64,000 bases of DNA from assembly GCA_900542145.1 (NCBI GenBank), contig UQMF01000002.1:136847-200846 (forward strand), given 5' to 3'. Position 1 is the first letter of the stretch; every line of letters begins with the position of its first letter. Made by a program: the position numbers and the translations under genes. The DNA comes from an uncultured Oscillospiraceae bacterium (GTDB taxonomy: Bacteria > Bacillota > Clostridia > Oscillospirales > Ruminococcaceae). Positions 37,515-50,389 of this stretch are shown here, one piece after another. Under the pieces are notes generated by a model, which saw only the letters and a program-made list of their open reading frames with translations, was not told the DNA's origin and made no database searches.

Positions 37515-38093
37515 ATGTCAACGGAGGAATGCAGGCGCTTTGAAAAGAAGCTGGCGTTTCACACAGCGCCGTCGCTGCTTGGAATAAAGTGCGCAAGTCT
37601 GCTGACGCTTTCACGCAGCGAGTTTGATATCAGCGGAAATGCACGCAGATTCAACCGGCGTGCGTCGGCAAAGGGACTGAAGATCAAGGTGCTGCGCGAG
37701 GAATGCGCGTGCCGCGACCGGTCGCTGATACTCGTCTATAACGAGAATAAGCTCGCGGAAAGGCTCTCCGGCAGGGAGGCACGGCAGCTGCTGAGCGAAT
37801 ACGGCTACGGCGATGAAATGACTCCGGAGCAGTGCCTTGAGCGGCTTTCGCAGCGTACCGCGTGCGACGAATTTCCGCACGAGATCGGCGTATTCCTTGA
37901 CTATCCCGTGGAGGACGTCCGCGGATTCGTGCAGAACAGCGGCTGCAACTATAAGCTGTGCGGCTGCTGGAAAGTATACGGGAGCGTTGAGAGCGCCCGG
38001 AAGAAATTCGCAGCGTATGACAAATGCCGTGAATATCTATGCAGAAAACTGGAGCAGGGCGAGGATATCTACCGTGCCCTGAAGATATCGTAA
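37515..38093 (+). CDS. DUF3793-like Cys-rich protein of unknown function
   Basis: 192 aa. AGGAGAG ribosome-binding site. Conserved Cys pairs (CNYKLCGCW, CREYLC). It lies 13 nt upstream of the flavodoxin gene. Confidence 0.5.
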   Translation: MSTEECRRFEKKLAFHTAPSLLGIKCASLLTLSRSEFDISGNARRFNRRASAKGLKIKVLREECACRDRSLILVYNENKLAERLSGREARQLLSEYGYGDEMTPEQCLERLSQRTACDEFPHEIGVFLDYPVEDVRGFVQNSGCNYKLCGCWKVYGSVESARKKFAAYDKCREYLCRKLEQGEDIYRALKIS

Positions 38094-38756: not shown

Positions 38757-41303
38757 ATGACTGATCCTATGACCGGACTGACCCGGGAGCAGGTCGCCGA
38801 AAAGACCGCCCGGGGCGAGAACGCCGGGGATTCCACCGTCAGATCAAAGAGCGTCGGCAGGATATTTGCCGATAATATATTCACGCTGTTCAACCTGATA
38901 AATGTGATAATTGCCGTGCTCGTGTTCCTGGTGGGAGCCTACCGGAACATGCTTTTCATGGGAGTTATCCTGTGCAATATAGCTATAGGAATATTCCAGG
39001 AGATACGCTCCAAGCGCATAATTGACCGGCTGTCCCTTATATCCGCGCCTAAGGCGCACCTGCTGAGGGACGGCGAGGAGCAGGTGCTTCCGGTTGCGGA
39101 CCTTGTCCCGGGGGATATCATGCTTCTTTCCACCGGCAGGCAGCTCTGTGCGGACGGGGTTCTCGTGTCCGGCGAGCTGGAGGCAGATGAGAGCCTGCTG
39201 ACCGGCGAAAGCGACACGGTAGTGAAGCGCCCGGGGGACACGCTGTATTCCGGAAGCTTTGTGGTAGCCGGCAGCGGAAAGGCGGAAGCGACAGCGGTCG
39301 GAGCGGCGGCATACGCGAACAAGATCGCAGCAGGCGCCAAGAAATCCAGAAAGCGCCGTTCGGACATGATGGACGCCATCAACAAGATAATCTCTGCTAT
39401 ATCCGTGTGTATCCTGCCGTTTGCGCTGGTGCTGTTCACCAAGGCGCTGTTTGTTGCCGGGCAGGAGCTTCAGTACAGTGTGACGAGTACCGCTGCCGCA
39501 ATAATCGGAATGATCCCCGAGGGGCTTGTTCTGCTGACGAGTATCGCGCTGGCGGTGAGCTCCATAAGGCTTGCGCGCCGCCGTACTCTCTGCCAGGACC
39601 TGTACTGTGTGGAAAGCCTTGCCCGGGTGGACGTTCTCTGCCTTGACAAGACCGGAACGATAACCACCGGAAACATGCAGCTTAGCGAGATAGTCCGCCT
39701 GGACGCGGATTTCACGCCGGAGCCGGCGCTGTCTGCACTTTCCGGGGCGCTGGGGGCGGAGAACCAGACCATGGCGGCAGTCGCCCGCAGATTCCCGGGA
39801 GGAAACGACGTGCACTGCGTAAAGACGGAGCCGTTTTCCTCCGCGCGGAAATGGAGCGCGGCGCAGTTCGAGGAATATGGCACGCTGATTCTGGGCGCGC
39901 CCAGCTTCGTCCTCGGCGCGGACGAGTATTCCGCCATCAGGGAGCAGTGCGAGAAGTACTCCTCCCGGGGAATGCGCGTGCTTCTCCTGGCGCAGAGCCG
40001 CGAGCCGCTGCCGGACAAGGCGCTTCCCGGCGGAGTAGTTCCGCGAGCGCTGGTGGTGCTTTCCGATGAGATAAGGGAGAGCGCGCCCTCCACCCTGGAG
40101 TACTTTCGGTCGCAGGGCGTGGATATCCGCGTGATATCCGGCGACGACCCGGTGACGGTATCCAACGTGGCGGCAAAGGCAGGGCTTCCCGGCGCGGAGA
40201 ATTACGCCGACATATCGCTGCTGACCGATGAGGAGCTTCCGGAAGCTGCGGAAAAGTACACCGTCTTCGGCAGGGTAACTCCCTCCCGGAAGCTTGCGCT
40301 GGTGAAGGCGCTGAGGTCGGCAGGTCACAAGGTCGCGATGACCGGCGACGGAGTGAACGATGTGCTGGCGCTCCGGGAGGCGGATTGCTCCGTGGCGGTG
40401 CAGTCCGGCAGCGACGCGGCAAGGTGCGTGTCCCAGCTTGTGCTGCTCGACAGCGACTTTTCCGCAATGCCCCTCGCCGTGGAGGAGGGCAGGCGCTGTA
40501 TCAACAATATCCAGCGTTCTGCGTCTCTGTTCCTTGTTAAGACGATATTCTCGTTCCTGCTTTCGGTGATGTTCCTGTTCTCATCGTCGGCGTATCCGTT
40601 CCAGCCGATACAGCTGACGCTGATAAGCGCGCTGTTTATCGGCGCTCCATCGTTCCTCCTGGCTCTGGAGCCTAACAAGGACCGGGTGCAGGGAAGATTC
40701 ATAGCGAACGTCCTGAAAAAGGCGCTCCCGGGAGGGCTTACTGTCGTGTTGGGTATCGGCGCCCTGCTGGTGCTCCAGAATATATTCTCGATTCCGCAGG
40801 AGCGGCTTTCGGTCATGGCGGTATACGTCACTGCCGGAGTACTCTACGGGGTGCTTTTCCGGGTCTGCAAGCCGTTCCGGAAGTGGCACATCATCATGCT
40901 GGCAGTCGTCCCGGCGGTGTTCTGCGCCGCGTGCTGGCTCGTCAGCCCGCTGTTCTATATCGTTCCACTGAATTTCAGCGAGTGGCTGTGCGTTGCGTGT
41001 GTGATTCCCGGGGAACTGATGATTTTCTGGGGGCTGGTCAATCTCCTGGGCAGGATACTCGGGCGCTGGTCCGGCGGATTCCCACCAATGCCGCGCACCA
41101 AGAAGGCCTGCGCCGGGACTGTGCTCGTCCTGTCGGCGGCATATGCGGTGTGGCTTTTCCTGATACTGGCGGATTACCTTGCCGTAAGGAACGGCGCGGT
41201 CCCGATATTTGCCATGAAACAGCCGGACGGCACGAATTCCGGGCTTCTCTACACGATAACCGACGGAGTGTTCCATGTATTCGGGCGTGATATAATTCCA
41301 TAA
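38757..41303 (+). CDS. Cation-transporting P-type ATPase (P2/P3-like, Ca2+/Mg2+ type)
   Basis: 848 aa. Actuator TGES. Phosphorylation site CLDKTGTITTG. Hinge MTGDGVNDVLAL. About 10 transmembrane helices. Confidence 0.9.
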   Translation: MTDPMTGLTREQVAEKTARGENAGDSTVRSKSVGRIFADNIFTLFNLINVIIAVLVFLVGAYRNMLFMGVILCNIAIGIFQEIRSKRIIDRLSLISAPKAHLLRDGEEQVLPVADLVPGDIMLLSTGRQLCADGVLVSGELEADESLLTGESDTVVKRPGDTLYSGSFVVAGSGKAEATAVGAAAYANKIAAGAKKSRKRRSDMMDAINKIISAISVCILPFALVLFTKALFVAGQELQYSVTSTAAAIIGMIPEGLVLLTSIALAVSSIRLARRRTLCQDLYCVESLARVDVLCLDKTGTITTGNMQLSEIVRLDADFTPEPALSALSGALGAENQTMAAVARRFPGGNDVHCVKTEPFSSARKWSAAQFEEYGTLILGAPSFVLGADEYSAIREQCEKYSSRGMRVLLLAQSREPLPDKALPGGVVPRALVVLSDEIRESAPSTLEYFRSQGVDIRVISGDDPVTVSNVAAKAGLPGAENYADISLLTDEELPEAAEKYTVFGRVTPSRKLALVKALRSAGHKVAMTGDGVNDVLALREADCSVAVQSGSDAARCVSQLVLLDSDFSAMPLAVEEGRRCINNIQRSASLFLVKTIFSFLLSVMFLFSSSAYPFQPIQLTLISALFIGAPSFLLALEPNKDRVQGRFIANVLKKALPGGLTVVLGIGALLVLQNIFSIPQERLSVMAVYVTAGVLYGVLFRVCKPFRKWHIIMLAVVPAVFCAACWLVSPLFYIVPLNFSEWLCVACVIPGELMIFWGLVNLLGRILGRWSGGFPPMPRTKKACAGTVLVLSAAYAVWLFLILADYLAVRNGAVPIFAMKQPDGTNSGLLYTITDGVFHVFGRDIIP

Positions 41304-41352
41304 GATAAAAGCGAACAGGGAAGCCCGTACAGGACTTCCATAAATAAAGATT

Positions 41353-41385
41353 GGAGGGTGCACAGCGCCCTCCGTTTGTATTTTA
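41353..41385. terminator. Bidirectional terminator between the ATPase (+) and the VWA gene (-)
   Basis: Hairpin GGAGGGTGCACAGCGCCCTCC followed by GTTTGTATTTT. Confidence 0.55.
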
Positions 41386-42531
41386 TGCGAAACCGGCAAG
41401 CGAACGCCGCTTCAGCGCATTTTCCAGCACTTCCGGAAGCCGCTCCGGAGGGCACGCGAAGCATGGGATATCCAGTGCCGACACCCTTTTGGCGAGTTCC
41501 TCGTCAAATATAGGCTTTCCGCTGTCGGATACCGCGAGCAGCACCACGATGTTCACGCCGGAGCTGCGGAGTTCCTCCAGACGGCGGAGCAGTCTGCTGC
41601 GGTTTCCGCCCTCGTACAGGTCGGTGACAATGAACATTGTGGTTTTTTCCGGCTGAGTCACCAGCCCGGAGCAGTACGCCACGGATTTTTCTATGTCCGT
41701 GCCGCCGCCGAGCTGTATTCCATACAGCAGCTCCACCGGGTCGGAGCAGTGCTCCGTGAGGTCGGTGACGGCGGTGTCGAAGGCGATGACGTGAGTCCTG
41801 AGGGAGCTTATGCTGGCGAGGATACAGCCCATCACGGAGGAATATATCGCGGATTCCGCCATGGAGCCGCTCTGGTCGATATCCAGAATCACGGTGCGCG
41901 AGCCGGATTTCGCCGCGCGCTCATAGAACCAGAATTTTTCCGGCAGCAGCAGTTTCCGCTCCGGGTCGTAATTTCCGAGATTGCGGCGGATAGTCGTGCG
42001 AAAATCCAGCGCCGCCGCACTGGGTATGGGGGAGTGTTCCCGGCGGTTCAGCGCGGAGCTTACGGAGCGGCGCAGGTCGTCGGACAGGCGGCGGTTTATG
42101 TCCTCCACTATCTTCGCGATATAGCGGTGCGCGTTGTCCTTTGCCCGGGCAGGGATCTGGTCTTTCAGCGTGAGCAGCAGCGCCGCCGTGGAGATATCCG
42201 GTGCCAGTCCCTCCAGCATTTCCGGCTCAAAGAGAAGCTGCTTCAGTCCACAGCGTTCGATCGCGTCGTTCTGTATTATGCGAATCTCGGTCTGGCTGAA
42301 AAGCGAACGCAGGTCGCCGAGCCATTTCGTCAGCTTCGGCGAGGATTTGCCGCTGCCTGCCATTCCGGAGGAGCTACCGTCGGAGTTTCCGCCGTATATC
42401 TGCGACAGCGCGGAATCCATGAGCATATCCTCCTCGGACATCGCGCCGGCGCCGCCTAGGGAGTTCATCGTATCCTCGCAGCAGCTGCCGAGAATCAGCC
42501 GCCAGCGTTTCAGAATTTCCTTGTTTTCCAT
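41383..42531 (-). CDS. VWA-domain protein with a MIDAS motif (YehP-like)
   Basis: 382 aa. MIDAS D-x-S-x-S in VILDIDQSGSM, with downstream T and D metal ligands. It is the last gene of the five-gene operon and its start abuts the upstream stop. Confidence 0.8.
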   Translation of the reverse strand: MENKEILKRWRLILGSCCEDTMNSLGGAGAMSEEDMLMDSALSQIYGGNSDGSSSGMAGSGKSSPKLTKWLGDLRSLFSQTEIRIIQNDAIERCGLKQLLFEPEMLEGLAPDISTAALLLTLKDQIPARAKDNAHRYIAKIVEDINRRLSDDLRRSVSSALNRREHSPIPSAAALDFRTTIRRNLGNYDPERKLLLPEKFWFYERAAKSGSRTVILDIDQSGSMAESAIYSSVMGCILASISSLRTHVIAFDTAVTDLTEHCSDPVELLYGIQLGGGTDIEKSVAYCSGLVTQPEKTTMFIVTDLYEGGNRSRLLRRLEELRSSGVNIVVLLAVSDSGKPIFDEELAKRVSALDIPCFACPPERLPEVLENALKRRSLAGFA

Positions 42532-44772
42532 TCAAATATCTCCGAAGTCAAAATCGTCAAGACTGCCGATGTCCTGCTGTTCCTGCGCATTCAGCGCCCC
42601 GGTCGTGAATTCAGCCGCCGACTGCTTTGAGATCCCCAGCACTTCGCCGATGTTCTCGGCTATGTCGGATTTTTCAGCAGGGGTGTATTCCGCGAACGTG
42701 CGCCGCAGGCAGACAAGCACCGGCTTGAATTCCTCGGTGGAAAGCCCTGCCGTGAAATCGCACAGCTTCTCCCAGACGGAAAGGCGGCTTATCAGTGCGC
42801 GGCGGTTCTTCTTCGAGAATCCCTCGAACCACTGCGCGCCCTCTGCGGCGAATCCCGGGGACAGCCGCCTGCCGATAAGCTCCGAGAGCTTGCCGGGGGC
42901 TATCAGTCCGCGCTCCATCAGCACCGCGCAGCAGAATCCCGAGAGCAGCGGCGCGGCGAAGTTGCTGTCCGCGATATCCGATAGCAGGGCGGTGAATCGG
43001 TCGCCGTCCATAAAATCATGCGCAGTGCAGGCATCGTTCACGGCGGAAACCGCGGTTATCAGCTGCTCCGCCGCCGGGCGGTCGCATACTGCTCCCGACG
43101 GAAGGCACAGGCAGAATCTCAGGAACAGCTTCTCCATAAGTTCCGGCAGGCTGCTGGTATCCAGCCGGCGGATACTGCCGAAGCGCAGTATTCCCGACAG
43201 CGTGCCCAGCGCCCTGCCGACTTCCGCGGCGGAGGAGCACTCCGCGGTCTGCTTCTGCACGGAGGAAGCGGCGGTCCGCACGCAGTCCGGCAGTCCGCAT
43301 TCAAACGCGGTGTCGAGCAGCGCGGCGGTCTGCGCCACGGATTCCGCCCCGGCAAGCTGCAGGGAGATATCGTTAGCCGCCGCCTGCTCCACCGTGTCGC
43401 CCTTCAGGGAGGCCTCCACTATTTCGATTTCCGCCTGGGGCGTCCAGCGGAGTTCCCACAGTTCCGCCCAGGTGGCGTTGTCCTGCGGCCGCGCCTTCTG
43501 TAGGCAGAAGCTGACGCCTAGCGCTTTCAGCCGGTGCAGGAAGAACGAGCGCTCAAGGTCGATGAACGCCGCCTTTTCCGTCTTTACCCGGAGATTCTCG
43601 CGCAGGTCGAGGGGCAGTTCCTCTGCGGTCGCCTTGCGGTATTTTTGCAGCTTCAGCTCCTTCAGCTGCCGCATGAAATCCTCCTGGACGGAGGTGCAGA
43701 CTGCGCCCTCCGGCATGGAGCCTATCCGCGTTCCGATCTCGACGTCTGCGCAGGCGAGGGATATTTCCGCGAAGCTGCCGTGACCCATGCAGGTGACTGC
43801 CGCGTCGCGCAGGTCGGCGAGGTTCGGAAGCTTGCCGCCGCGCATTTCGGCGAGAGTGTCCGCAAGGCGTTTGGCTTCGATCACTTCCGCCGTGGAGCAG
43901 GCGAAGCCGTGTTCGCGCTGATACTCCGCTATTTTAGCGAGGTACTGCGCGGCGCTGTTCCGGATATCCCCGGAGCGGCGGCAGTTCCACAGGAGTTCGC
44001 TGTATCCGGGAGCCCTGCACCCGGCGCCGTAGCCGGAGCGCTCCGACAGGCGGTAGTAGGAATACGGCATGAGCGTCGCCTTTGAGGTCACGGTCGGTAG
44101 CTTACCGGTGAGTTTCGCGTCCTCCTGTGTGAACGGGACGTTTTTCAGTCCTGCGGTGTGGAAGGCTCCGGTCAGCACCGCGATATTACCGCCGGGGTGC
44201 GCGGATTCGCACTCGCTTATCACCCGGCGCATGAATGCTTCGCGCAGGGAGTTGTGCGCGTCGCTGCCGGAAAAACCGCGCAGCGACGCGCCGTAGTTCT
44301 CAGCGGCGGCGAGGAAGTCCTCATAGCTTTCGCACTGCTCAAAGCAGTATTCCCAGAAGGAGCCGTTGTCCATTCCGGAAACCGCCTCCATGCGCTCGTA
44401 AACGTTCGGCGAGCGGTCGTCAGTGGAGCCGTCCTCGTCGTCGGATTCCTGCTGTATCTGCGCCAGCACGCAGTCGGAGGGCAGGTCGCAGAAGCGCACC
44501 TCCACACCGTTTCGCACCGCCCACATCATCGCGGCGTATTCCGGGGAGAATTCCGCGAAGGGGTAGAGCACGGTGTGCACCGGGGCTTCCTCGGTGTAGG
44601 CGAGTATCGCGCCGGGCAGCTTCACCTCCGGGGCGCAAAGCTGCGGGATCAGTCCGCTGAGGTCGGAGGGACCCTCGATGAGCAGCACCTCCGGCTGTGT
44701 GCGCCGCAGGAATTCCTCAGCGTAATATGCGCAGGCAGGGGAGTGGTGTCTTACTCCGAAATAGTGCGTCAT
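42532..44772 (-). CDS. DUF5682-like large protein (YehM-like), function unknown
   Basis: About 746 aa. The start was chosen at ATG 44772 (MTHYFGVRHHSPACAYY), which has a GGGAGAG ribosome-binding site and a TAATG overlap with the AAA+ gene. No catalytic motifs recognised. Confidence 0.6.
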   Translation of the reverse strand: MTHYFGVRHHSPACAYYAEEFLRRTQPEVLLIEGPSDLSGLIPQLCAPEVKLPGAILAYTEEAPVHTVLYPFAEFSPEYAAMMWAVRNGVEVRFCDLPSDCVLAQIQQESDDEDGSTDDRSPNVYERMEAVSGMDNGSFWEYCFEQCESYEDFLAAAENYGASLRGFSGSDAHNSLREAFMRRVISECESAHPGGNIAVLTGAFHTAGLKNVPFTQEDAKLTGKLPTVTSKATLMPYSYYRLSERSGYGAGCRAPGYSELLWNCRRSGDIRNSAAQYLAKIAEYQREHGFACSTAEVIEAKRLADTLAEMRGGKLPNLADLRDAAVTCMGHGSFAEISLACADVEIGTRIGSMPEGAVCTSVQEDFMRQLKELKLQKYRKATAEELPLDLRENLRVKTEKAAFIDLERSFFLHRLKALGVSFCLQKARPQDNATWAELWELRWTPQAEIEIVEASLKGDTVEQAAANDISLQLAGAESVAQTAALLDTAFECGLPDCVRTAASSVQKQTAECSSAAEVGRALGTLSGILRFGSIRRLDTSSLPELMEKLFLRFCLCLPSGAVCDRPAAEQLITAVSAVNDACTAHDFMDGDRFTALLSDIADSNFAAPLLSGFCCAVLMERGLIAPGKLSELIGRRLSPGFAAEGAQWFEGFSKKNRRALISRLSVWEKLCDFTAGLSTEEFKPVLVCLRRTFAEYTPAEKSDIAENIGEVLGISKQSAAEFTTGALNAQEQQDIGSLDDFDFGDI

Positions 44773-45851
44773 TATGCGTTTCTCTCCCTGCATTCAGCGT
44801 ACAGTCCTGCGCATTCACGGCGCTTTTTCATCACGTTTTCGAGGTATTCCGCCCAGACAGCCTTGTCCTTGGTGTCGTCCTTGACGACTGCGCCCTGGAG
44901 CGCGGAGGCAAGGTCGGAGTCGGAAATCACGCCGTTACCGAAGCTTCCGGCGAGCGCCATGCTGTTTATCAGCAGGGAGATAGCCTCCGCGGAGGACAGC
45001 ACTCCGGAGGTCTGCTTCAGCTTGACCTGCCCGTCGAGGGTCTGCCCGTTCCGGAGTTCCCGGAAAATAGTCACAACGCGTTCCACGGAGGTGCGGTCGG
45101 GGAGTTTCGCGGTCAGCCCGAAGCTGTCGGAAAGCTGCGCGACCCTGGTATTTACAATGTTGATTTCGGTTTCCATATCCGCCGGGGCAGGAAGCACCAC
45201 GATATTGAAGCGGCGCTTCAGCGCGGAGGACATCTCGTTGACGCCCTTGTCGCGCGTGTTGGCGGTGGCGATAACGGAGAATCCCTTTTTCGCAGGGACT
45301 TCCTCGGAAAGCTCCGGCACGGAAATGCGCTTTTCTGAAAGAATGGAGATGAGCGCGTCTTGCACCTCGCTGGCGCAGCGCGAAATCTCTTCAATGCGCG
45401 CAATAGCGCCGGCTTCCATCGCAGAGTACACCGGGCTTTTCACGAGCGCTTCGTGGGAGGGACCCTTCGCAAGCAGCAGCGCGTAGTTCCAGGAGTAGCG
45501 TATCTGCTCCTCAGTGGTGCCGGCGGTACCCTGGATAACCAGGGAGGAATCGCCGTTTATTGCTGCGGTGAGGTGCTCCGACAGCCAGGATTTCGCAGTG
45601 CCCGGCTCGCCTATCAGCAGGAGGGCGCGGTCGGTGACGAGGGTCGCAATGCATATCTCAACGATACGGCGGTCGCCCATGTATTTCGGCGTGATGACGG
45701 TATTACCGGACTTGCCGCCCATTATGTAGGTCAGCACGGAGCGCGGTGACATCTTCCAGCCGGTGGGCACGGGGTCTTTTTCGTTTTTGATGAGGGCTTC
45801 AAGCTCCGCCTTGTACAGTTCCTCGGCAGGCAGGCGCAGTATATCGGACAT
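44772..45851 (-). CDS. MoxR-type AAA+ ATPase (AAA_5; YehL-like)
   Basis: 359 aa. Walker A LLIGEPGTAKS. MoxR-like sensor/Walker B region ARIEEISRCASEVQDALISILSE. Arg-finger region ALKRRF. Confidence 0.85.
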   Translation of the reverse strand: MSDILRLPAEELYKAELEALIKNEKDPVPTGWKMSPRSVLTYIMGGKSGNTVITPKYMGDRRIVEICIATLVTDRALLLIGEPGTAKSWLSEHLTAAINGDSSLVIQGTAGTTEEQIRYSWNYALLLAKGPSHEALVKSPVYSAMEAGAIARIEEISRCASEVQDALISILSEKRISVPELSEEVPAKKGFSVIATANTRDKGVNEMSSALKRRFNIVVLPAPADMETEINIVNTRVAQLSDSFGLTAKLPDRTSVERVVTIFRELRNGQTLDGQVKLKQTSGVLSSAEAISLLINSMALAGSFGNGVISDSDLASALQGAVVKDDTKDKAVWAEYLENVMKKRRECAGLYAECRERNA

Positions 45852-45867
45852 GGTATGGTTCCTTTCT

Positions 45868-47691
45868 TTATTCGGGGAGTTCTTCCAGCAGATTCCTTGC
45901 TATCGTGGAGAAGTGCGAGAGCGGTCCGGTCAGCACTTTATCCAGCATTTCCAGCAGGAGAGTGCGCTTCTGCTGTACGGTGAGGAGTGGGGTCTTTGCG
46001 ACTTCATATGCAGAGCGCGGCGCGTTGGGTGGGAACATCGCGCAGTCCCGTATCAGCCGGAAAGTCGTTTTGCTGTCCGGCGAGCCGTAATTTACGATTA
46101 GCTCCAGCAGGTCCAGATGTGGTATCTTTTTTATCGCAGCGAGGGCGAATTTCACAGTCTGCTCCTTTATCGCACCGACATCATCGGGAGCCGCTGTTTC
46201 AATAGCGGTTTTCAGGAAATTACAGCGTGCCTGTACTGGGTATGTCATTTCCCTGGAATCGCCGCTTATCATGGAGGATTCGCCCAGAAGCTCCGTCAGT
46301 GACTGCGGCATGCGTGCGAAAAGAGGCATTGTCAGCACGCGGACAGGGATATCACCGTATGCGACCGGAACTTCCGCCGCGAAGATATATTTCCCGTCGC
46401 TTTCAGAATAGCGGATACCATCTTCAAGCAGGTGAAAAGCAGCGTAGCTGCCCCGGCGTGATATGCGCTTCTTCATTTCCGCGGCGACCTTGTCCGGATC
46501 GTCCGGGAGCATAGCTATACACCATGCGGTGAAGAATGCTTCCGGCTCCTTTTCATGCAGCCGCAGCGTCATTGCCTTAAATCTGCCGTCCGGGTCGGGG
46601 AACATGTTGTTGATGAGCACATAGTTCATCTCGCGCAGCTCATATATTCCCTTCGGGCTGGCAGGAAACTTCCTGGAGAATTCCAGTGCTCGCAGGAAGC
46701 AGTCGTCGATGTCCGGCTTGTGTATCATCATGGATACCGTACTCATGACCTGCTTCGGATCCGGGCGATTCTTCTTATCGGCGGAGAAGGCGCTGTCCAA
46801 CCTGTTGCGGATAAAATCCACCGCCACATCGGACGGTGAAGTGCACAGAATCGGCAGGTAGCTGTCCTTGTACTTCGCGGTGAGTTTCGTTAGGATATCA
46901 TCGAATCCCGGAGGATTCAGCCGCGCAGTTTCAAGGAGGGCGGCGGTTTTTACCCTGCCCTTTTCGGTGCGGCAGAAATCCAGCAGGCGCAGAGCGTTTG
47001 CGCTGTCCCGTCCCAGTGCCTGGATCGCCTTTATCCGGACATTCTGTGGAGCTTCCTCGTTTTCCGCGAGGGAGAGGTACCAGTCGTTTTCCGCGCTTCC
47101 GGCGGTGTTCGCGATGTAGTCCACCTGCACCCCGGAAGCCTTCTCGTCCGACATATCGATGGAGCCTTTCAGCAGCGGCACGATGGAGGTTCCATAGGCG
47201 GCGCACATCGTATCTGCAAAGGCGCTGATATTCTCGCCCTTCTCTCCGGAGGCGGAAATAAACATCTCCAGTATTCTTGGGTCGCCTAGCAGTGCATATT
47301 CATCCGGGTCAAGCTTTTTCAGGTGCTGGCTTTTCGTGAGTATCGCAGCCCACAGGGATTTCACGGATCGCCAGCCTGCCTCCATGTTGTATTCCACATC
47401 GTATTCCAGCGTGCCCGGTTGGGATTCCTCGGCGTTGGTGTAGTGACCCTGGGCAACCGCCAGGGCGTCCGCCAATGCAATGCAGTCCGCCAGCAGGAGT
47501 GCCGGCTCCGGCTCGGTAAAGAGCCTTGCGCACATATCGCGCAGGCGTGCGAAGGTCTTGTTGGCTTCCGCGAGGGGAGCCATACCCTCCACGGCGCGCT
47601 TCAGCCGGAAGTCCTCCGGTATGGAAGCGCACCCGGCGGAGGCGCAGTCGTAAAGTCTGTCGTGAAGCTCGTAAAACGGCGCAGTATTCAT
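45868..47691 (-). CDS. Large hypothetical protein (607 aa), operon-embedded, no recognisable domain
   Basis: AAAGGAA ribosome-binding site. Predicted to be helical/repeat-rich. It lies between the SWIM and AAA+ genes with 13- and 16-nt spacers. Confidence 0.55.
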   Translation of the reverse strand: MNTAPFYELHDRLYDCASAGCASIPEDFRLKRAVEGMAPLAEANKTFARLRDMCARLFTEPEPALLLADCIALADALAVAQGHYTNAEESQPGTLEYDVEYNMEAGWRSVKSLWAAILTKSQHLKKLDPDEYALLGDPRILEMFISASGEKGENISAFADTMCAAYGTSIVPLLKGSIDMSDEKASGVQVDYIANTAGSAENDWYLSLAENEEAPQNVRIKAIQALGRDSANALRLLDFCRTEKGRVKTAALLETARLNPPGFDDILTKLTAKYKDSYLPILCTSPSDVAVDFIRNRLDSAFSADKKNRPDPKQVMSTVSMMIHKPDIDDCFLRALEFSRKFPASPKGIYELREMNYVLINNMFPDPDGRFKAMTLRLHEKEPEAFFTAWCIAMLPDDPDKVAAEMKKRISRRGSYAAFHLLEDGIRYSESDGKYIFAAEVPVAYGDIPVRVLTMPLFARMPQSLTELLGESSMISGDSREMTYPVQARCNFLKTAIETAAPDDVGAIKEQTVKFALAAIKKIPHLDLLELIVNYGSPDSKTTFRLIRDCAMFPPNAPRSAYEVAKTPLLTVQQKRTLLLEMLDKVLTGPLSHFSTIARNLLEELPE

Positions 47692-47704
47692 ATGTATCCT
47701 CCCC

Positions 47705-49120
47705 TCAGCACAGCTTGGTTATTCCGTCCGTGTGGACAATGGACATCGGACAGAGGTACATGCGGTGGTCTTCCGGCGCGTAGTACATCAGCCCGAAAAG
47801 CGCGCCGTCATGCAGCCGGCGGCTGTCCACAAAGGAAAGAATGTCGCAGCAGTTCGGGAACTGCCGGTAGTATGCCTGGAGAGTTATGCTCTCCTCCCCG
47901 AGTTTCAGCACGGCGCGGCGCTTATCCGCAAGCTGTATCTCGTCGAACCGGAGCAGCACACCGGCATAGGGCTCGGAGAGCGTGTTTTTCAGGTCGTTCT
48001 TGGCGGTTTTAACAGCTTCAGCGATACTGGTGCCAGCCTTTTCGAGCACCCGGGAGTAGTCCGGCGCGGATATCTCAGCCGCCTCCCACCGCACCCGGGG
48101 ATTCAGTCCCCCGGGGTAGCGGCAGAGCACGGGAACATGGAAAATCCCGGTCGCGGAATCCTCCTGCTTCAGGTATTTTGCCGCCTTTACCGGGCGGATA
48201 TTCCGCGTGCAGTATATCTCTCCGGAGCCGAGGTCGAGCCAGAATCCGTTGTCGGTTTCCACGGTGAGGTTGTAGTTGTTGTTCTCGCAGAAGGCCAGCT
48301 GGATAAGCTCGGCGTTTTCCTTGTACAGTCCGGCTTCCCGGAGCTGCGAGAGCTTCCACACGCCGCCCAGTTCCTCGTAGAGTACGCTGTCCTCCGGGAG
48401 CACGTCGCCGGATTCCAGCTTTGCGGTTATGTACTGCCGGGATTTCTTCACGGTGGCGGCAAGCCTTATCAGCAGGGAAGTGATGTAGCGCATGGATTTG
48501 TCGCCGGGGTCGCCGGTGAGATACTGCACGGAATCCACGATACGGTTCATTATCTCCTGGAGCCCGGGCAGCCAGTAGTCGCCGAGCTGCTTCGCGAGGG
48601 CGCGGTACTGGTCGGCAGCGGCGCTGTTGGCGGAGTACACTCCGCGGCTGAGCATGTCCTTCACGAAGCTTTCCGCGAGGTCGAGTCCCTCCAGCTGCTT
48701 CTTCAGTTTCTTTGCGGCTGCGGATTTGTTCTGCTTTGCCGGAGCGGCAGGAGCTGCCGCCTTTTCGGCGCGCTTTGCTGCCTTTTCGCGCTTCTGCGCT
48801 ATGTCGTCGGGGATATCTGCGGTTTCGAACGGTTTTCCGGAGAGCCACTCCAGCATGAGCGCCAGGGAGTGCTTGCACGGGAACTGCCTGCTGGGGCAGG
48901 AGCAGCGGAATACCGGCTCGTTCCCGGAAAAATCCGCCGAGGTGGAGTAGGGATTCTTTCCGCTGCCCTGGCACTCGCCGAAAATCAGGGTTTCGTCCGC
49001 CGTCTTTTTCAGGTTGATGAACTCCCCACGGGAGCATATCTTCCGGGCGTTATCTATGGCGGCAGTATTCGGCGCCACGGAGCGCACCAGCTCCATTGAG
49101 ATGATACTTGCTGTTGACAT
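47705..49120 (-). CDS. SWIM zinc-finger domain protein
   Basis: 471 aa. SWIM signature CxCx(n)CxH in FRCSCPSRQFPCKHSLALMLEW. Lys/Ala-rich low-complexity linker. GGAGGAAAG ribosome-binding site. Confidence 0.75.
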   Translation of the reverse strand: MSTASIISMELVRSVAPNTAAIDNARKICSRGEFINLKKTADETLIFGECQGSGKNPYSTSADFSGNEPVFRCSCPSRQFPCKHSLALMLEWLSGKPFETADIPDDIAQKREKAAKRAEKAAAPAAPAKQNKSAAAKKLKKQLEGLDLAESFVKDMLSRGVYSANSAAADQYRALAKQLGDYWLPGLQEIMNRIVDSVQYLTGDPGDKSMRYITSLLIRLAATVKKSRQYITAKLESGDVLPEDSVLYEELGGVWKLSQLREAGLYKENAELIQLAFCENNNYNLTVETDNGFWLDLGSGEIYCTRNIRPVKAAKYLKQEDSATGIFHVPVLCRYPGGLNPRVRWEAAEISAPDYSRVLEKAGTSIAEAVKTAKNDLKNTLSEPYAGVLLRFDEIQLADKRRAVLKLGEESITLQAYYRQFPNCCDILSFVDSRRLHDGALFGLMYYAPEDHRMYLCPMSIVHTDGITKLC

Positions 49121-49151
49121 GGCTTTCCTCCATTGTTAATGTTATGTATCA

Positions 49152-49180
49152 ATTATATCAGAAAACCGCCGTTTTTTCAA
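49152..49180 (-). promoter_or_regulatory. Consensus sigma-A promoter TTGAAA-17-TATAAT on the - strand for the SWIM/MoxR/VWA operon
   Basis: The -35 complement is at 49175-49180 and the -10 complement at 49152-49157, about 30 nt upstream of the SWIM gene ATG. Confidence 0.5.
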
Positions 49181-49247
49181 TACACTAAATACCCCGTTTT
49201 CCCATCGGACGCATGCTTCGGTCTGATTTGTGGTGTGGAAAGTATAA

Positions 49248-49871
49248 TTATGTCAGCATATACATCAGTGCGTTGACTATCGCTGCGGCGACATTGCTGC
49301 CGCCCTTTCTTCCCCGGGCAACGATATACGGGACTCCGCTCTGCATGATGAGCTCCTTCGACTGAACTACGTTCACGAATCCCACGGGAACGCCTATTAC
49401 GAATGCCGGAGAGAAATCCCCGGCAGTGATATGCTCATACAGCCGGATAAGTGCAGTCGGAGCGTTTCCGCAGGCGAAGATCACGGGCTTCCCCAGCTGA
49501 GCGGCGCGGTCAACGGAAGCCGCCGCCCGGGTAGTTCCATGCGCCTTTGCGGCTGCGGCGGTTTCCGGGTCTGACATGAAGCAGAGCACCTCGCAGCCAA
49601 GTCTGCTCAGCGCGGATTTGTTGATGCCTGCCTTCGCCATGTTGGTGTCGGTCACTATGACGGCGCCGTTGCGGAGCAGCTCCAGCGCTGTGTCCACGGC
49701 GTTTTCCGAAAAGCACAGGTTGTCCGCGTAGTCAAAATCCGCCGTGGTGTGTATCACCCGGTAAAGCACGGGCTTTATCTTTTCCGGGAATGTCCTGCCG
49801 CCAAGCTCGGATTCGATGATCTCAAAGCTGCGGTGCTCGATATCCGCCGGAAGTACATATTCTATGTTCAA
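49248..49871 (-). CDS. cbiC: Precorrin-8X / cobalt-precorrin-8 methylmutase
   Basis: CbiC/CobH family from the conserved core. Proposed TTG start at 49871, forming a TTGA overlap with the cobO stop and sitting behind a GGGGG ribosome-binding site. That gives about 207 aa, the usual CbiC size. The long tracked N-terminal region is Arg-rich and non-coding. Confidence 0.75.
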   Translation of the reverse strand: MNIEYVLPADIEHRSFEIIESELGGRTFPEKIKPVLYRVIHTTADFDYADNLCFSENAVDTALELLRNGAVIVTDTNMAKAGINKSALSRLGCEVLCFMSDPETAAAAKAHGTTRAAASVDRAAQLGKPVIFACGNAPTALIRLYEHITAGDFSPAFVIGVPVGFVNVVQSKELIMQSGVPYIVARGRKGGSNVAAAIVNALMYMLT

Positions 49872-50389
49872 TATTCTATCCCCCTGCGTGCGTTGATTCC
49901 CCGGGTGTAGGGGTGCTTTACGCACTTGATTTCGCTGACGTAATCTGCGGAATCCACGAACATCTGCGCAGGCTCTCGCCCGGTTATCACAAGCTCGGCG
50001 CTGCCGGGCTTTTCCGTCAGGAATTCCTCTGCCGCCGCCCTGTCGAGAAGTCCGCTGCGGTATGCCGCGTTGAATTCGTCGATTATCAGCATGTCCACCT
50101 CCCCGGAGCGCACCATGGAGTAGCCTTTTTCCAGCAGGGCATTGTGGCACTCGGTGATTCCGCGCTTGTCCTCGTCGGTCATATTCCAGACGAAGCCGTA
50201 ATTCCTGTCGCAGCGCTCAAGGGTGATTCCCGGAATGCTTCGTATTACGGACAGCTCCGAGGTGTCCGAGCCTTTAAGCAGCTGGATTATGTGCACGCGC
50301 ATTCCGGCGCCTGCCGCCCGGACTGCCAGCCCTAGCGCCGCTGTCGTTTTTCCCTTGCCGTCGCCGCAGTAAATATGCAGAAGTCCCAT
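49868..50389 (-). CDS. cobO: Cob(I)yrinic acid a,c-diamide adenosyltransferase (CobO/BtuR/CobA type)
   Basis: P-loop CGDGKGKTTAALG. 173 aa. Confidence 0.85.
   Translation of the reverse strand: MGLLHIYCGDGKGKTTAALGLAVRAAGAGMRVHIIQLLKGSDTSELSVIRSIPGITLERCDRNYGFVWNMTDEDKRGITECHNALLEKGYSMVRSGEVDMLIIDEFNAAYRSGLLDRAAAEEFLTEKPGSAELVITGREPAQMFVDSADYVSEIKCVKHPYTRGINARRGIEY

Follow-up and report, generated by a model that had tools for sequence, protein, structure and literature searches.

A Firmicute form of the SWIM, gene 2, MoxR, DUF5682 and VWA cassette in an uncultured Oscillospiraceae bacterium and its possible relation to genotoxic stress

On the 64,000 nucleotides (nt) of DNA analysed here (from here: the window; contig UQMF01000002.1 of assembly GCA_900542145.1, positions 136,847 to 200,846), which belong to an uncultured Oscillospiraceae bacterium, five genes follow each other closely on the minus strand and combine a MoxR-class AAA+ ATPase and a VWA protein with three further large proteins. 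This raises the question of what kind of system such an operon encodes and which cellular task it might serve. We report that the locus is the Firmicute form of a cassette composed of SWIM, gene 2, MoxR, DUF5682 and VWA genes, in which an uncatalogued HEAT-like family replaces DUF5691. The cassette kind itself is already known and has named relatives, and the locus is not a categorically new system. New are the fold and the catalytic set predicted for DUF5682, the solenoid family in the gene 2 slot, the covariation of this slot with the DUF5682 tail and the link to ddrTUVWX and LexA. With regard to its task, we tentatively read the cassette as an ATP-driven remodelling and hydrolase complex with genotoxic stress as the most likely context, and we give this reading somewhat less than an even chance. 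The operon comprises the following features:

47705..49120, minus strand: g1, SWIM zinc-finger protein, DdrT-like by position, 471 amino acids (aa)
45868..47691, minus strand: g2, alpha-solenoid (HEAT-like) protein, 607 aa
44772..45851, minus strand: g3, MoxR-class AAA+ ATPase of the YehL subfamily, 359 aa
42532..44772, minus strand: g4, DUF5682 protein, YehM-like, 746 aa
41383..42531, minus strand: g5, CoxE-type VWA protein, YehP/DdrX-like, 382 aa
49152..49180, minus strand: sigma-70-type promoter, TTGAAA-17-TATAAT with an extended -10 TG, 11 of 12 consensus positions
41352..41374, both strands: intrinsic bidirectional terminator between g5 and a convergent P-type ATPase gene (38757-41303)

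The conservation of the cassette was followed in loci sampled by a DUF5682-motif pattern scan with one genome per species. Open reading frames (ORFs) were called in 80 loci and their genes were classified with hidden Markov models (HMMs) built from the window families and the E. coli proteins. The scan detected DUF5682 relatives in at least 598 species, abundant human-gut Firmicutes included, which places the cassette among the more widespread bacterial operons without an assigned function. The order SWIM, HEAT-like, MoxR, DUF5682, VWA was found in 39 of 39 intact loci from Firmicutes and Fusobacteria (loci cut by a contig end were excluded), spanning Oscillospiraceae, Lachnospiraceae, Bacillaceae, Paenibacillaceae, Fusobacterium and Leptotrichia. 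In Bacteroidota, beta/gamma-proteobacteria and an acidobacterial metagenome-assembled genome (MAG) the order is SWIM, DUF5691, MoxR, DUF5682, VWA. Two actinobacterial loci show the same order, and NCBI-annotated records of Rhizobium and Deinococcus list SWIM, DUF5691, AAA, DUF5682 and VWA as overlapping genes. This DUF5691-type frame is present in at least five phyla besides Firmicutes and Fusobacteria. Because the order is the same in all intact loci, the five genes constitute a module and no chance juxtaposition; the latter had been envisaged in a preliminary description of this DNA and gives way here to strong co-conservation.

The same preliminary description had proposed that the five genes are co-directional and tightly coupled, that they possess a consensus promoter of their own and that the operon ends at a bidirectional terminator. 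The ORFs, the junctions and both signals bear this out. From g1 to g3, spacers of 13 and 16 nt separate the genes; g3 and g4 overlap by 1 nt (TAATG), and the TGA of g4 is directly followed by the ATG of g5 (0 nt). A Shine-Dalgarno sequence is present at all five starts. For g4 there also exists a longer ORF with a start at 44793; translation more likely begins at the ATG at 44772 because homologues measure about 745 aa and the ribosome-binding site GGGAGAG lies ahead of it. The promoter at 49180-49152 is the sole strong promoter-like site within 41000-49600, at a distance of 32 nt to the g1 start codon. The terminal hairpin at 41352-41374 has a free energy of -14.3 kcal/mol in the minus transcript and of -19.1 kcal/mol in the plus transcript (z-scores -2.8 and -4.5), with T-rich tails on both strands.

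A single transcript is predicted from the sequence. Weak terminator-like hairpins occur inside the genes, as would fit five genes that are adjacent by chance or belong to separate transcription units. A total of 20 hairpin-like sites lie within the operon compared to 8 expected in shuffled sequence. However, although above this expectation, the internal hairpins contain fewer G-C pairs than the terminal one. The close spacing from a 1-nt overlap to 16 nt, the ribosome-binding site at every start, the single strong promoter together with the single strong terminator and the identical gene order in all intact loci of many phyla also speak against separate units, and we consider the probability of this explanation to be close to nil.

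The second gene distinguishes the two forms of the cassette. The HEAT-like family fills the gene 2 slot in all Firmicutes and Fusobacteria loci, whereas DUF5691 fills it in the other phyla. DUF5691-type proteins from Bacteroidota, beta/gamma-proteobacteria and the acidobacterial MAG have about 490-570 aa and match the Pfam family at E values between 1e-54 and 1e-119. In the window, the 607-aa g2 had been described as a large protein without a recognisable domain, and it indeed has no match in Pfam; its relatives give weak HEAT_2 matches, mostly below the Pfam threshold. The apparent orphan is a fast-evolving alpha-solenoid family that lies outside all Pfam models. In 36 loci, the median identity to the window proteins was 28% for g2, 42% for the SWIM protein, 47% for DUF5682, 55% for the VWA protein and 74% for MoxR, and g2 is considered the fastest-evolving subunit since its value is the lowest of the five. 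Neither g2 nor ten distant relatives matched PF18944 (DUF5691). A divergent DUF5691 protein was rejected as an identity for g2, with an hhalign probability of about 1% against the DUF5691 alignment and negative BLASTP and Pfam results. A divergent YehQ or YehI was likewise rejected, with negative results in BLASTP and hhalign.

Pfam matches and motifs verified by translation confirmed the SWIM zinc-finger, MoxR-class AAA+ and MIDAS-intact VWA proteins of the preliminary description (MIDAS, metal ion-dependent adhesion site). The g1 protein matches SWIM (PF04434, E 5e-5), as do 36 of 36 sampled relatives. Its CxC...CxH motif CSCPSRQFPCKH at 48869-48904 provides the ligands C73-x-C75...C82-x-H84. 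In a set of 69 sequences covering several phyla, G48, C50, G52-G54, Y58, D63, C73, C75, C82 and H84 reach a conservation of at least 97%. Behind the SWIM finger come a Lys-rich linker and then about 330 aa of C-terminal sequence without family assignment. The linker (residues ~105-145, window ~48690-48810) is a Lys/Ala-rich low-complexity segment, KREKAAKRAEKAAAPAAPAKQNKSAAAKKLKK, which gave a spurious PDB match to LidA.

The g3 protein matches AAA_5 (E 2e-40) and bears the Walker A motif GEPGTAKS at 45588-45611. More than 100 of its residues are at least 97% conserved in 77 sequences, K87 included, and among these E154/E155 may be read as Walker B, N198 as sensor 1 and R213/R214 as the arginine finger. 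The g5 protein consists of an N-terminal conserved region and a VWA domain only (VWA_CoxE PF05762, E 2e-44), with the MIDAS motif DIDQSGSM at 41860-41883. In 71 sequences, D219, S221, S223, T253 and D304 are at least 97% conserved, of which T253 and D304 can be read as the remaining MIDAS positions, and the N-terminal W10-R11..L14-G15 motif is conserved to the same extent. NCBIfam returned far-below-threshold AAA matches to MadB and GvpN and nothing else for the window proteins, and PDB sequence searches with g1, g2, g4 and a profile of the g4 N-terminal domain gave nothing significant.

The only predicted catalytic centre of the cassette lies in g4, a DUF5682 protein (PF18934, E 1e-155). In an AlphaFold2 model (mean predicted local distance difference test score, pLDDT, 81.4) an alpha/beta domain of approximately residues 1-240 (44053-44772) precedes a C-terminal helical-repeat scaffold of about 500 aa. 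The N-terminal domain of the model has a parallel beta-sheet core and probably the fold common to TraB, Ere, ChaN, HopBA1 and PMT; the haem-binding ChaN is among its structural matches. Most of these matches are listed members of the TIKI superfamily, in which the catalytic set consists of 2His/2Glu plus Arg at strand ends (PMC6254334). In the g4 model, H9 follows strand 1, E33 is placed at the end of strand 2, and R177-E178 stand ahead of the strand (197-202) that leads to G202-x-x-H205. Across 82 sequences drawn from several phyla, among them E. coli YehM, conservation reaches at least 97% at these residues (H9, E33, H205, R177 and E178) as well as at E78 and D96.

We consider a TIKI/TraB/erythromycin-esterase fold likely for the modelled N-terminal domain. 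The assignment is rated only likely because the sequence support is marginal, with 2 of 15 DUF5682 N-terminal domains matching the ChaN/Tiki Pfam family at E ~0.03, and because the matches that Foldseek found in the PDB for the whole DUF5682 model were all non-significant and to helical repeats, among them a ZSWIM8-CUL3 chain at a probability of 0.28. Similarity to the TIKI/TraB/PrgY/GumN/ChaN/Ere superfamily is at noise level in sequence, and the characterised TIKI/TraB/Ere members have not been described as fused to a helical scaffold of ~500 aa or as part of an AAA+/VWA operon. Given this fold and the conserved His/Glu/His/Arg set, we infer that g4 is a hydrolase. The preliminary description had seen no nameable catalytic motif in this protein of ~750 aa, a statement which is superseded by the predicted set. 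Its proposal that HMM searches might place the two large proteins in well-characterised families of known function led to DUF5682 for one of them and to no Pfam family for the other, g2.

The DUF5682 C-terminus changes together with gene 2. In g4 it is an acidic-aromatic tail ending in LDDFDFGDI-COOH (window 42532-42558), and the pattern L[DNE][DE]FDF[GD]D[ILF] or a one-residue variant thereof closes the DUF5682 protein in 45 of 45 full-length loci with a HEAT-like gene 2 (L005-L049). The acidic-aromatic tail is confined to such cassettes, and many DUF5691-type loci have a hydrophobic LLG-type tail instead. In E. coli, where a gene 2 equivalent is missing, the tail is of a third kind. This pattern suggests that the tail may dock the second subunit, or that its acidic form may dock the MIDAS site.

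Gene sizes and domain order had led the preliminary description to compare the operon with the enterobacterial yehL/yehM/yehP cluster and its neighbours yehQ and molR. The likeness holds at the sequence level for three genes over their full length: g3 and YehL are 41% identical (E 7e-87), g4 and YehM 28% (E 2e-42), and g5 and YehP 33% (E 3e-71). It does not hold for YehQ, which shares with g1 the SWIM motif alone; YehQ as the orthologue of g1 was rejected because the alignment was restricted to this motif. In the K-12 region, YehL (MoxR), YehM (DUF5682) and YehP (VWA) stand in the same order as in the window and the SWIM protein YehQ belongs to the same operon, but YehQ has 614 aa and is encoded last. 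Instead of a gene 2 equivalent, E. coli possesses WGR and DUF4132 genes upstream, where yehF (WGR domain; yehF/molR), the pseudogene yehH, yehI (DUF4132) and yehK are located, and its DUF5682 tail is unlike that of the window. Hence, E. coli yehLMPQ is a rearranged version of the cassette. It was present as a single locus in 5353 of 5426 complete E. coli genomes (~99%). There, yehL and yehM are repressed by H-NS (PMC3686432). One of the seven MoxR subfamilies bears the name of YehL, a protein without an assigned function (PMC3893208).

WGR and DUF4132 proteins adjoin the cassette not only in E. coli but also in several Chitinophagaceae. A DUF4132 protein of ~980-1000 aa follows or precedes the VWA gene in some Bacteroidota cassettes (L058, L070, L073, L075 and L001), the first four of which belong to Chitinophagaceae and relatives, and its placement echoes that of yehI beside yehL. 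Literature searches on DUF5682, DUF5691, yehLMPQ and the combination of SWIM, MoxR and vWA found no functional study.

The relation to genotoxic stress comes from homologous cassettes in other lineages. In Deinococcus deserti, the five-gene operon ddrTUVWX (Deide_18730-18690) has a SWIM gene at its head and the gene of a CoxE-like VWA protein at its end. It ranks with the transcription units that radiation induces most strongly; this induction depends on IrrE/DdrO, and an upstream operator is conserved in five Deinococcus species. The function of the operon was stated to be unknown by the authors (PMC5552922). This operator, the radiation/desiccation-response motif (RDRM) of Deinococcus, is bound by DdrO. 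The cassette of D. taeanensis has the order SWIM, DUF5691, AAA, DUF5682, VWA as in the window, with a DUF5682 protein 30% identical to g4 (E 8e-67). On its plasmid p_TS293_3 (L088:2735-2751), the RDRM-like site TTACGCCAGAAACATAA is located 20 nt upstream of the SWIM start codon, just downstream of and partly overlapping the -10 element of the promoter TTGACA-16-TACAAT, and is the sole such site in 16 kb. Most likely, ddrTUVWX is the same cassette. It differs from the window operon in having DUF5691 as gene 2 in place of the non-homologous HEAT-like solenoid, and in its radiation-induced control by IrrE/DdrO, while the window operon has a near-consensus promoter without a recognisable damage-response operator. 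With a named YehL subfamily (PMC3893208), routine NCBI annotation and the radiation-induced ddrTUVWX operon (PMC5552922), the "undescribed system" of the preliminary description was too strong a term.

In Bacillaceae, exact LexA (Cheo) boxes, GAAC-N4-GTTC, occur in or beside the promoter in 3 of 4 loci. The background for this box, which is bound by Gram-positive LexA, is 0.007 sites per 390 nt. In two of the loci (L033 and L034) the box lies at about -46 to -49 from the SWIM start and fills the 17-nt promoter spacer, TTTACA-GAACGTATGTTCGTTAC-TATAAT, and in the third (L041) it lies at -130. The gene families that adjoin some cassettes show a comparable regulation. In D. radiodurans, WGR and DUF4132 proteins are DdrO-regulated and up after mitomycin C, and E. 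coli molR was reported in the LexA regulon (bioRxiv 10.1101/2021.07.07.451423); we found a LexA-like box 25 nt upstream of yehF. The genotoxic-stress context is proposed on the basis of two groups of homologous cassettes, the radiation-induced ones of Deinococcus and those of Bacillaceae with their LexA operators; DNA damage is the physiological cue experimentally in the former and by prediction in the latter.

How might such a cassette work? The five proteins would assemble as one complex, in which a MoxR hexamer would hydrolyse ATP and the VWA protein would grip a peptide of a partner or substrate through its MIDAS metal site. DUF5682 would contribute the helical scaffold and the sole predicted catalytic centre, of the TIKI/TraB/Ere type with its His/Glu/His/Arg set. 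The SWIM protein and the gene 2 solenoid would choose or dock the target, and the lineage-specific tail at the C-terminus of DUF5682 would probably be the docking site of the solenoid itself. The net result would be the ATP-gated remodelling and cleavage of a protein or protein-nucleic-acid substrate as part of a genotoxic-stress response. The analysis thus offers testable statements, namely one predicted catalytic centre (His/Glu/His in DUF5682) and a candidate docking tail. If the role in DNA damage is true, bacterial genome maintenance would gain a new multi-subunit AAA+ machine, and several ddr genes of Deinococcus would be explained.

A more specific version of this proposal, which we regard as distinctly unlikely, is that the MoxR ring and the MIDAS adaptor feed or activate a scaffolded TIKI-fold protease that is targeted by the SWIM protein and the solenoid and clears damage-induced protein obstacles. 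These obstacles might be trapped topoisomerases or DNA-protein crosslinks, and the machine would then be a functional analogue of the eukaryotic Cdc48/p97-Wss1/SPRTN system. This version agrees with the predicted hydrolase and with the damage-responsive regulation seen in three lineages and, if true, would provide a function for both E. coli yehLMPQ and Deinococcus ddrTUVWX.

Several observations weigh against a damage-responsive remodelling and hydrolase complex. Activity, complex and phenotype are putative for every member of the cassette, and ddrTUVWX was identified from published gene descriptions and a congeneric locus rather than from an alignment with D. deserti. The DNA-damage operators are lineage-restricted. 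In the window promoter, from -300 to +90 of g1, no GAAC-N4-GTTC site was found at up to 1 mismatch, and neither SOS nor Cheo boxes were found in the other Oscillospiraceae, Lachnospiraceae and Paenibacillaceae loci. The same was true for E. coli-type LexA boxes in 10 beta/gamma-proteobacterial loci, for the alphaproteobacterial LexA box in the Rhizobium locus and for LexA boxes in the two actinobacterial loci. In the latter two, sites resembling RecA-NDp, the actinobacterial LexA-independent damage-response motif, occurred at background frequency only. As for the hydrolase, ChaN has the same fold but binds haem without hydrolysis, so the N-terminal domain of g4 could be a binding module. Finally, since the change of the tail with gene 2 coincides with a deep phylogenetic split, it is suggestive rather than conclusive. 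The upstream regions of related Oscillospiraceae loci were also compared and had no obvious operator in common.

Two other tasks have to be weighed against the genotoxic-stress reading. The cassette could be an anti-phage or conflict system in which MoxR and VWA act as a thresholding switch, the solenoid and the SWIM protein detect the invader and the TIKI-like domain serves as effector, either as a protease or as a toxin. Its logic is similar to that of MoxR-vWA systems with a large alpha-helical third component (PMC7159879), with which it shares the MoxR-vWA core and large, fast-diverging alpha-helical partners, and a peptidase-type output would be plausible as well. In addition, g3 scores just over the bpMoxR threshold (28.3 vs 27 bits, over 50 residues). 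However, the phyletic pattern of the cassette differs from that of these ternary systems by taking in unicellular gut Firmicutes and by being core-like in E. coli, and SWIM or YehL systems go unmentioned in that work (PMC7159879). Pfam searches with the five proteins detected no VMAP, iSTAND, FtsH or beta-propeller third component (one SWIM relative gave a chance-level VMAP-M9 match, E 0.043), and the VWA protein has no fused effector. PADLOC-DB v2 lacked a meaningful match to any of the five, with only a chance-level hit of Cas8e to g3 (E 5e-4, 17 bits). The self-contained cassette with variable flanks, the rapid evolution of gene 2 and its exchange for a non-homologous family between clades, the H-NS silencing of yehL and yehM in E. 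coli and the presence of toxins such as RRSP and HopBA1 within the TIKI fold are all in line with a conflict role, and induction by DNA damage is compatible with the sensing of prophage induction. Yet yehLMPQ is core-like and not island-like in E. coli, the cassette is rare on plasmids and essentially absent from phages, and its neighbours in the window are cobalamin genes and a P-type ATPase. We therefore regard a conflict system as fairly unlikely; if true, it would represent a new and very common defence architecture.

Still lower, at a level we would call very unlikely, stands a maturation or cofactor-insertion chaperone of the CoxD/CoxE, CbbQ/CbbO, NorQ/NorD or CobS/CobT type that serves one housekeeping enzyme, here possibly in cobalamin metabolism, with the ChaN-like domain binding a tetrapyrrole or metal. 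The characterised MoxR-VWA pairs are chaperones or insertases (PMC3893208, PMC7159879). An AAA_5/MoxR motor with a MIDAS VWA adaptor is common to the cassette and RavA-ViaA, CoxD-CoxE, CbbQ-CbbO, NorQ-NorD, CobS-CobT/ChlI-ChlD and Rea1/midasin. The VWA protein falls into the CoxE family, haem-binding ChaN is among the structural matches of DUF5682 alongside weak matches to PF04187, and the operon stands here directly downstream of cbiC-cobO-cobQ without a terminator in between. In contrast to these pairs, however, the cassette adds three conserved subunits, one with a predicted hydrolase domain, and lacks a conserved adjacent client: no candidate client gene is conserved beside it in 82 loci, and a CobN-like or enzyme-client partner is not present. 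The conserved His/Glu/His/Arg set is also more in keeping with the hydrolases of this fold than with ChaN. To our knowledge, E. coli, which carries yehLMPQ, does not synthesise B12 de novo, which counts against this explanation as well. A link to B12 had been suggested in the preliminary description; it does not extend beyond this species, as cobalamin genes were found within 10 kb in 0 of ~80 other loci. A B12 or chelatase role was rejected, as the cobalamin genes are adjacent in this species only and the window contains no cobalamin riboswitch: Rfam at gathering thresholds detected neither this nor any other RNA family in the whole 64 kb.

The genomic surroundings of the cassette are variable. 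When 619 flanking genes were clustered, no family beyond the five genes was conserved and the largest occurred in 8 of 82 loci. Without any conserved flanking gene, the module stands on its own, and the genes beside it in the window are incidental. On plasmids it was encountered in 44 of 72,556 records, mostly megaplasmids or mislabelled chromosomes, and in phages in one doubtful record only. This record, MT835988.1 ('Bacteriophage sp.', 14,207 bp, from human faeces), encodes a full-length DUF5682 protein 46% identical to g4 and is probably a misclassified bacterial contig. The window proteins were found in hundreds of human-gut metagenome contigs; among the named relatives, Oscillospiraceae MAGs come closest.

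Directly upstream of the operon (49248-~63900, minus strand) lies a long co-directional cluster for cobalamin biosynthesis and salvage with CbiC, a CobO-like adenosyltransferase, CobQ, a class I/II aminotransferase, CbiB/CobD and a histidine phosphatase, and there is no terminator between cbiC and the operon promoter. The mechanically called CbiC ORF (49248-50150) has 300 aa and overlaps the 173-aa CobO-like gene; its start is over-extended, because the gene calls of identical metagenome contigs give a CbiC of 207 aa. Downstream of the operon are a DUF3793 gene (37515-38093) and the convergent P-type (E1-E2) ATPase gene (38757-41303), with which the operon shares the terminator. A different neighbourhood exists in two related Oscillospiraceae/Ruminococcus MAGs (L005 and L008), where the cassette is co-directional with and directly downstream of the late flagellar genes flgM, flgN, flgK, flgL, fliW, csrA, fliD, fliS and fliT, with a terminator-like hairpin between them and the cassette.

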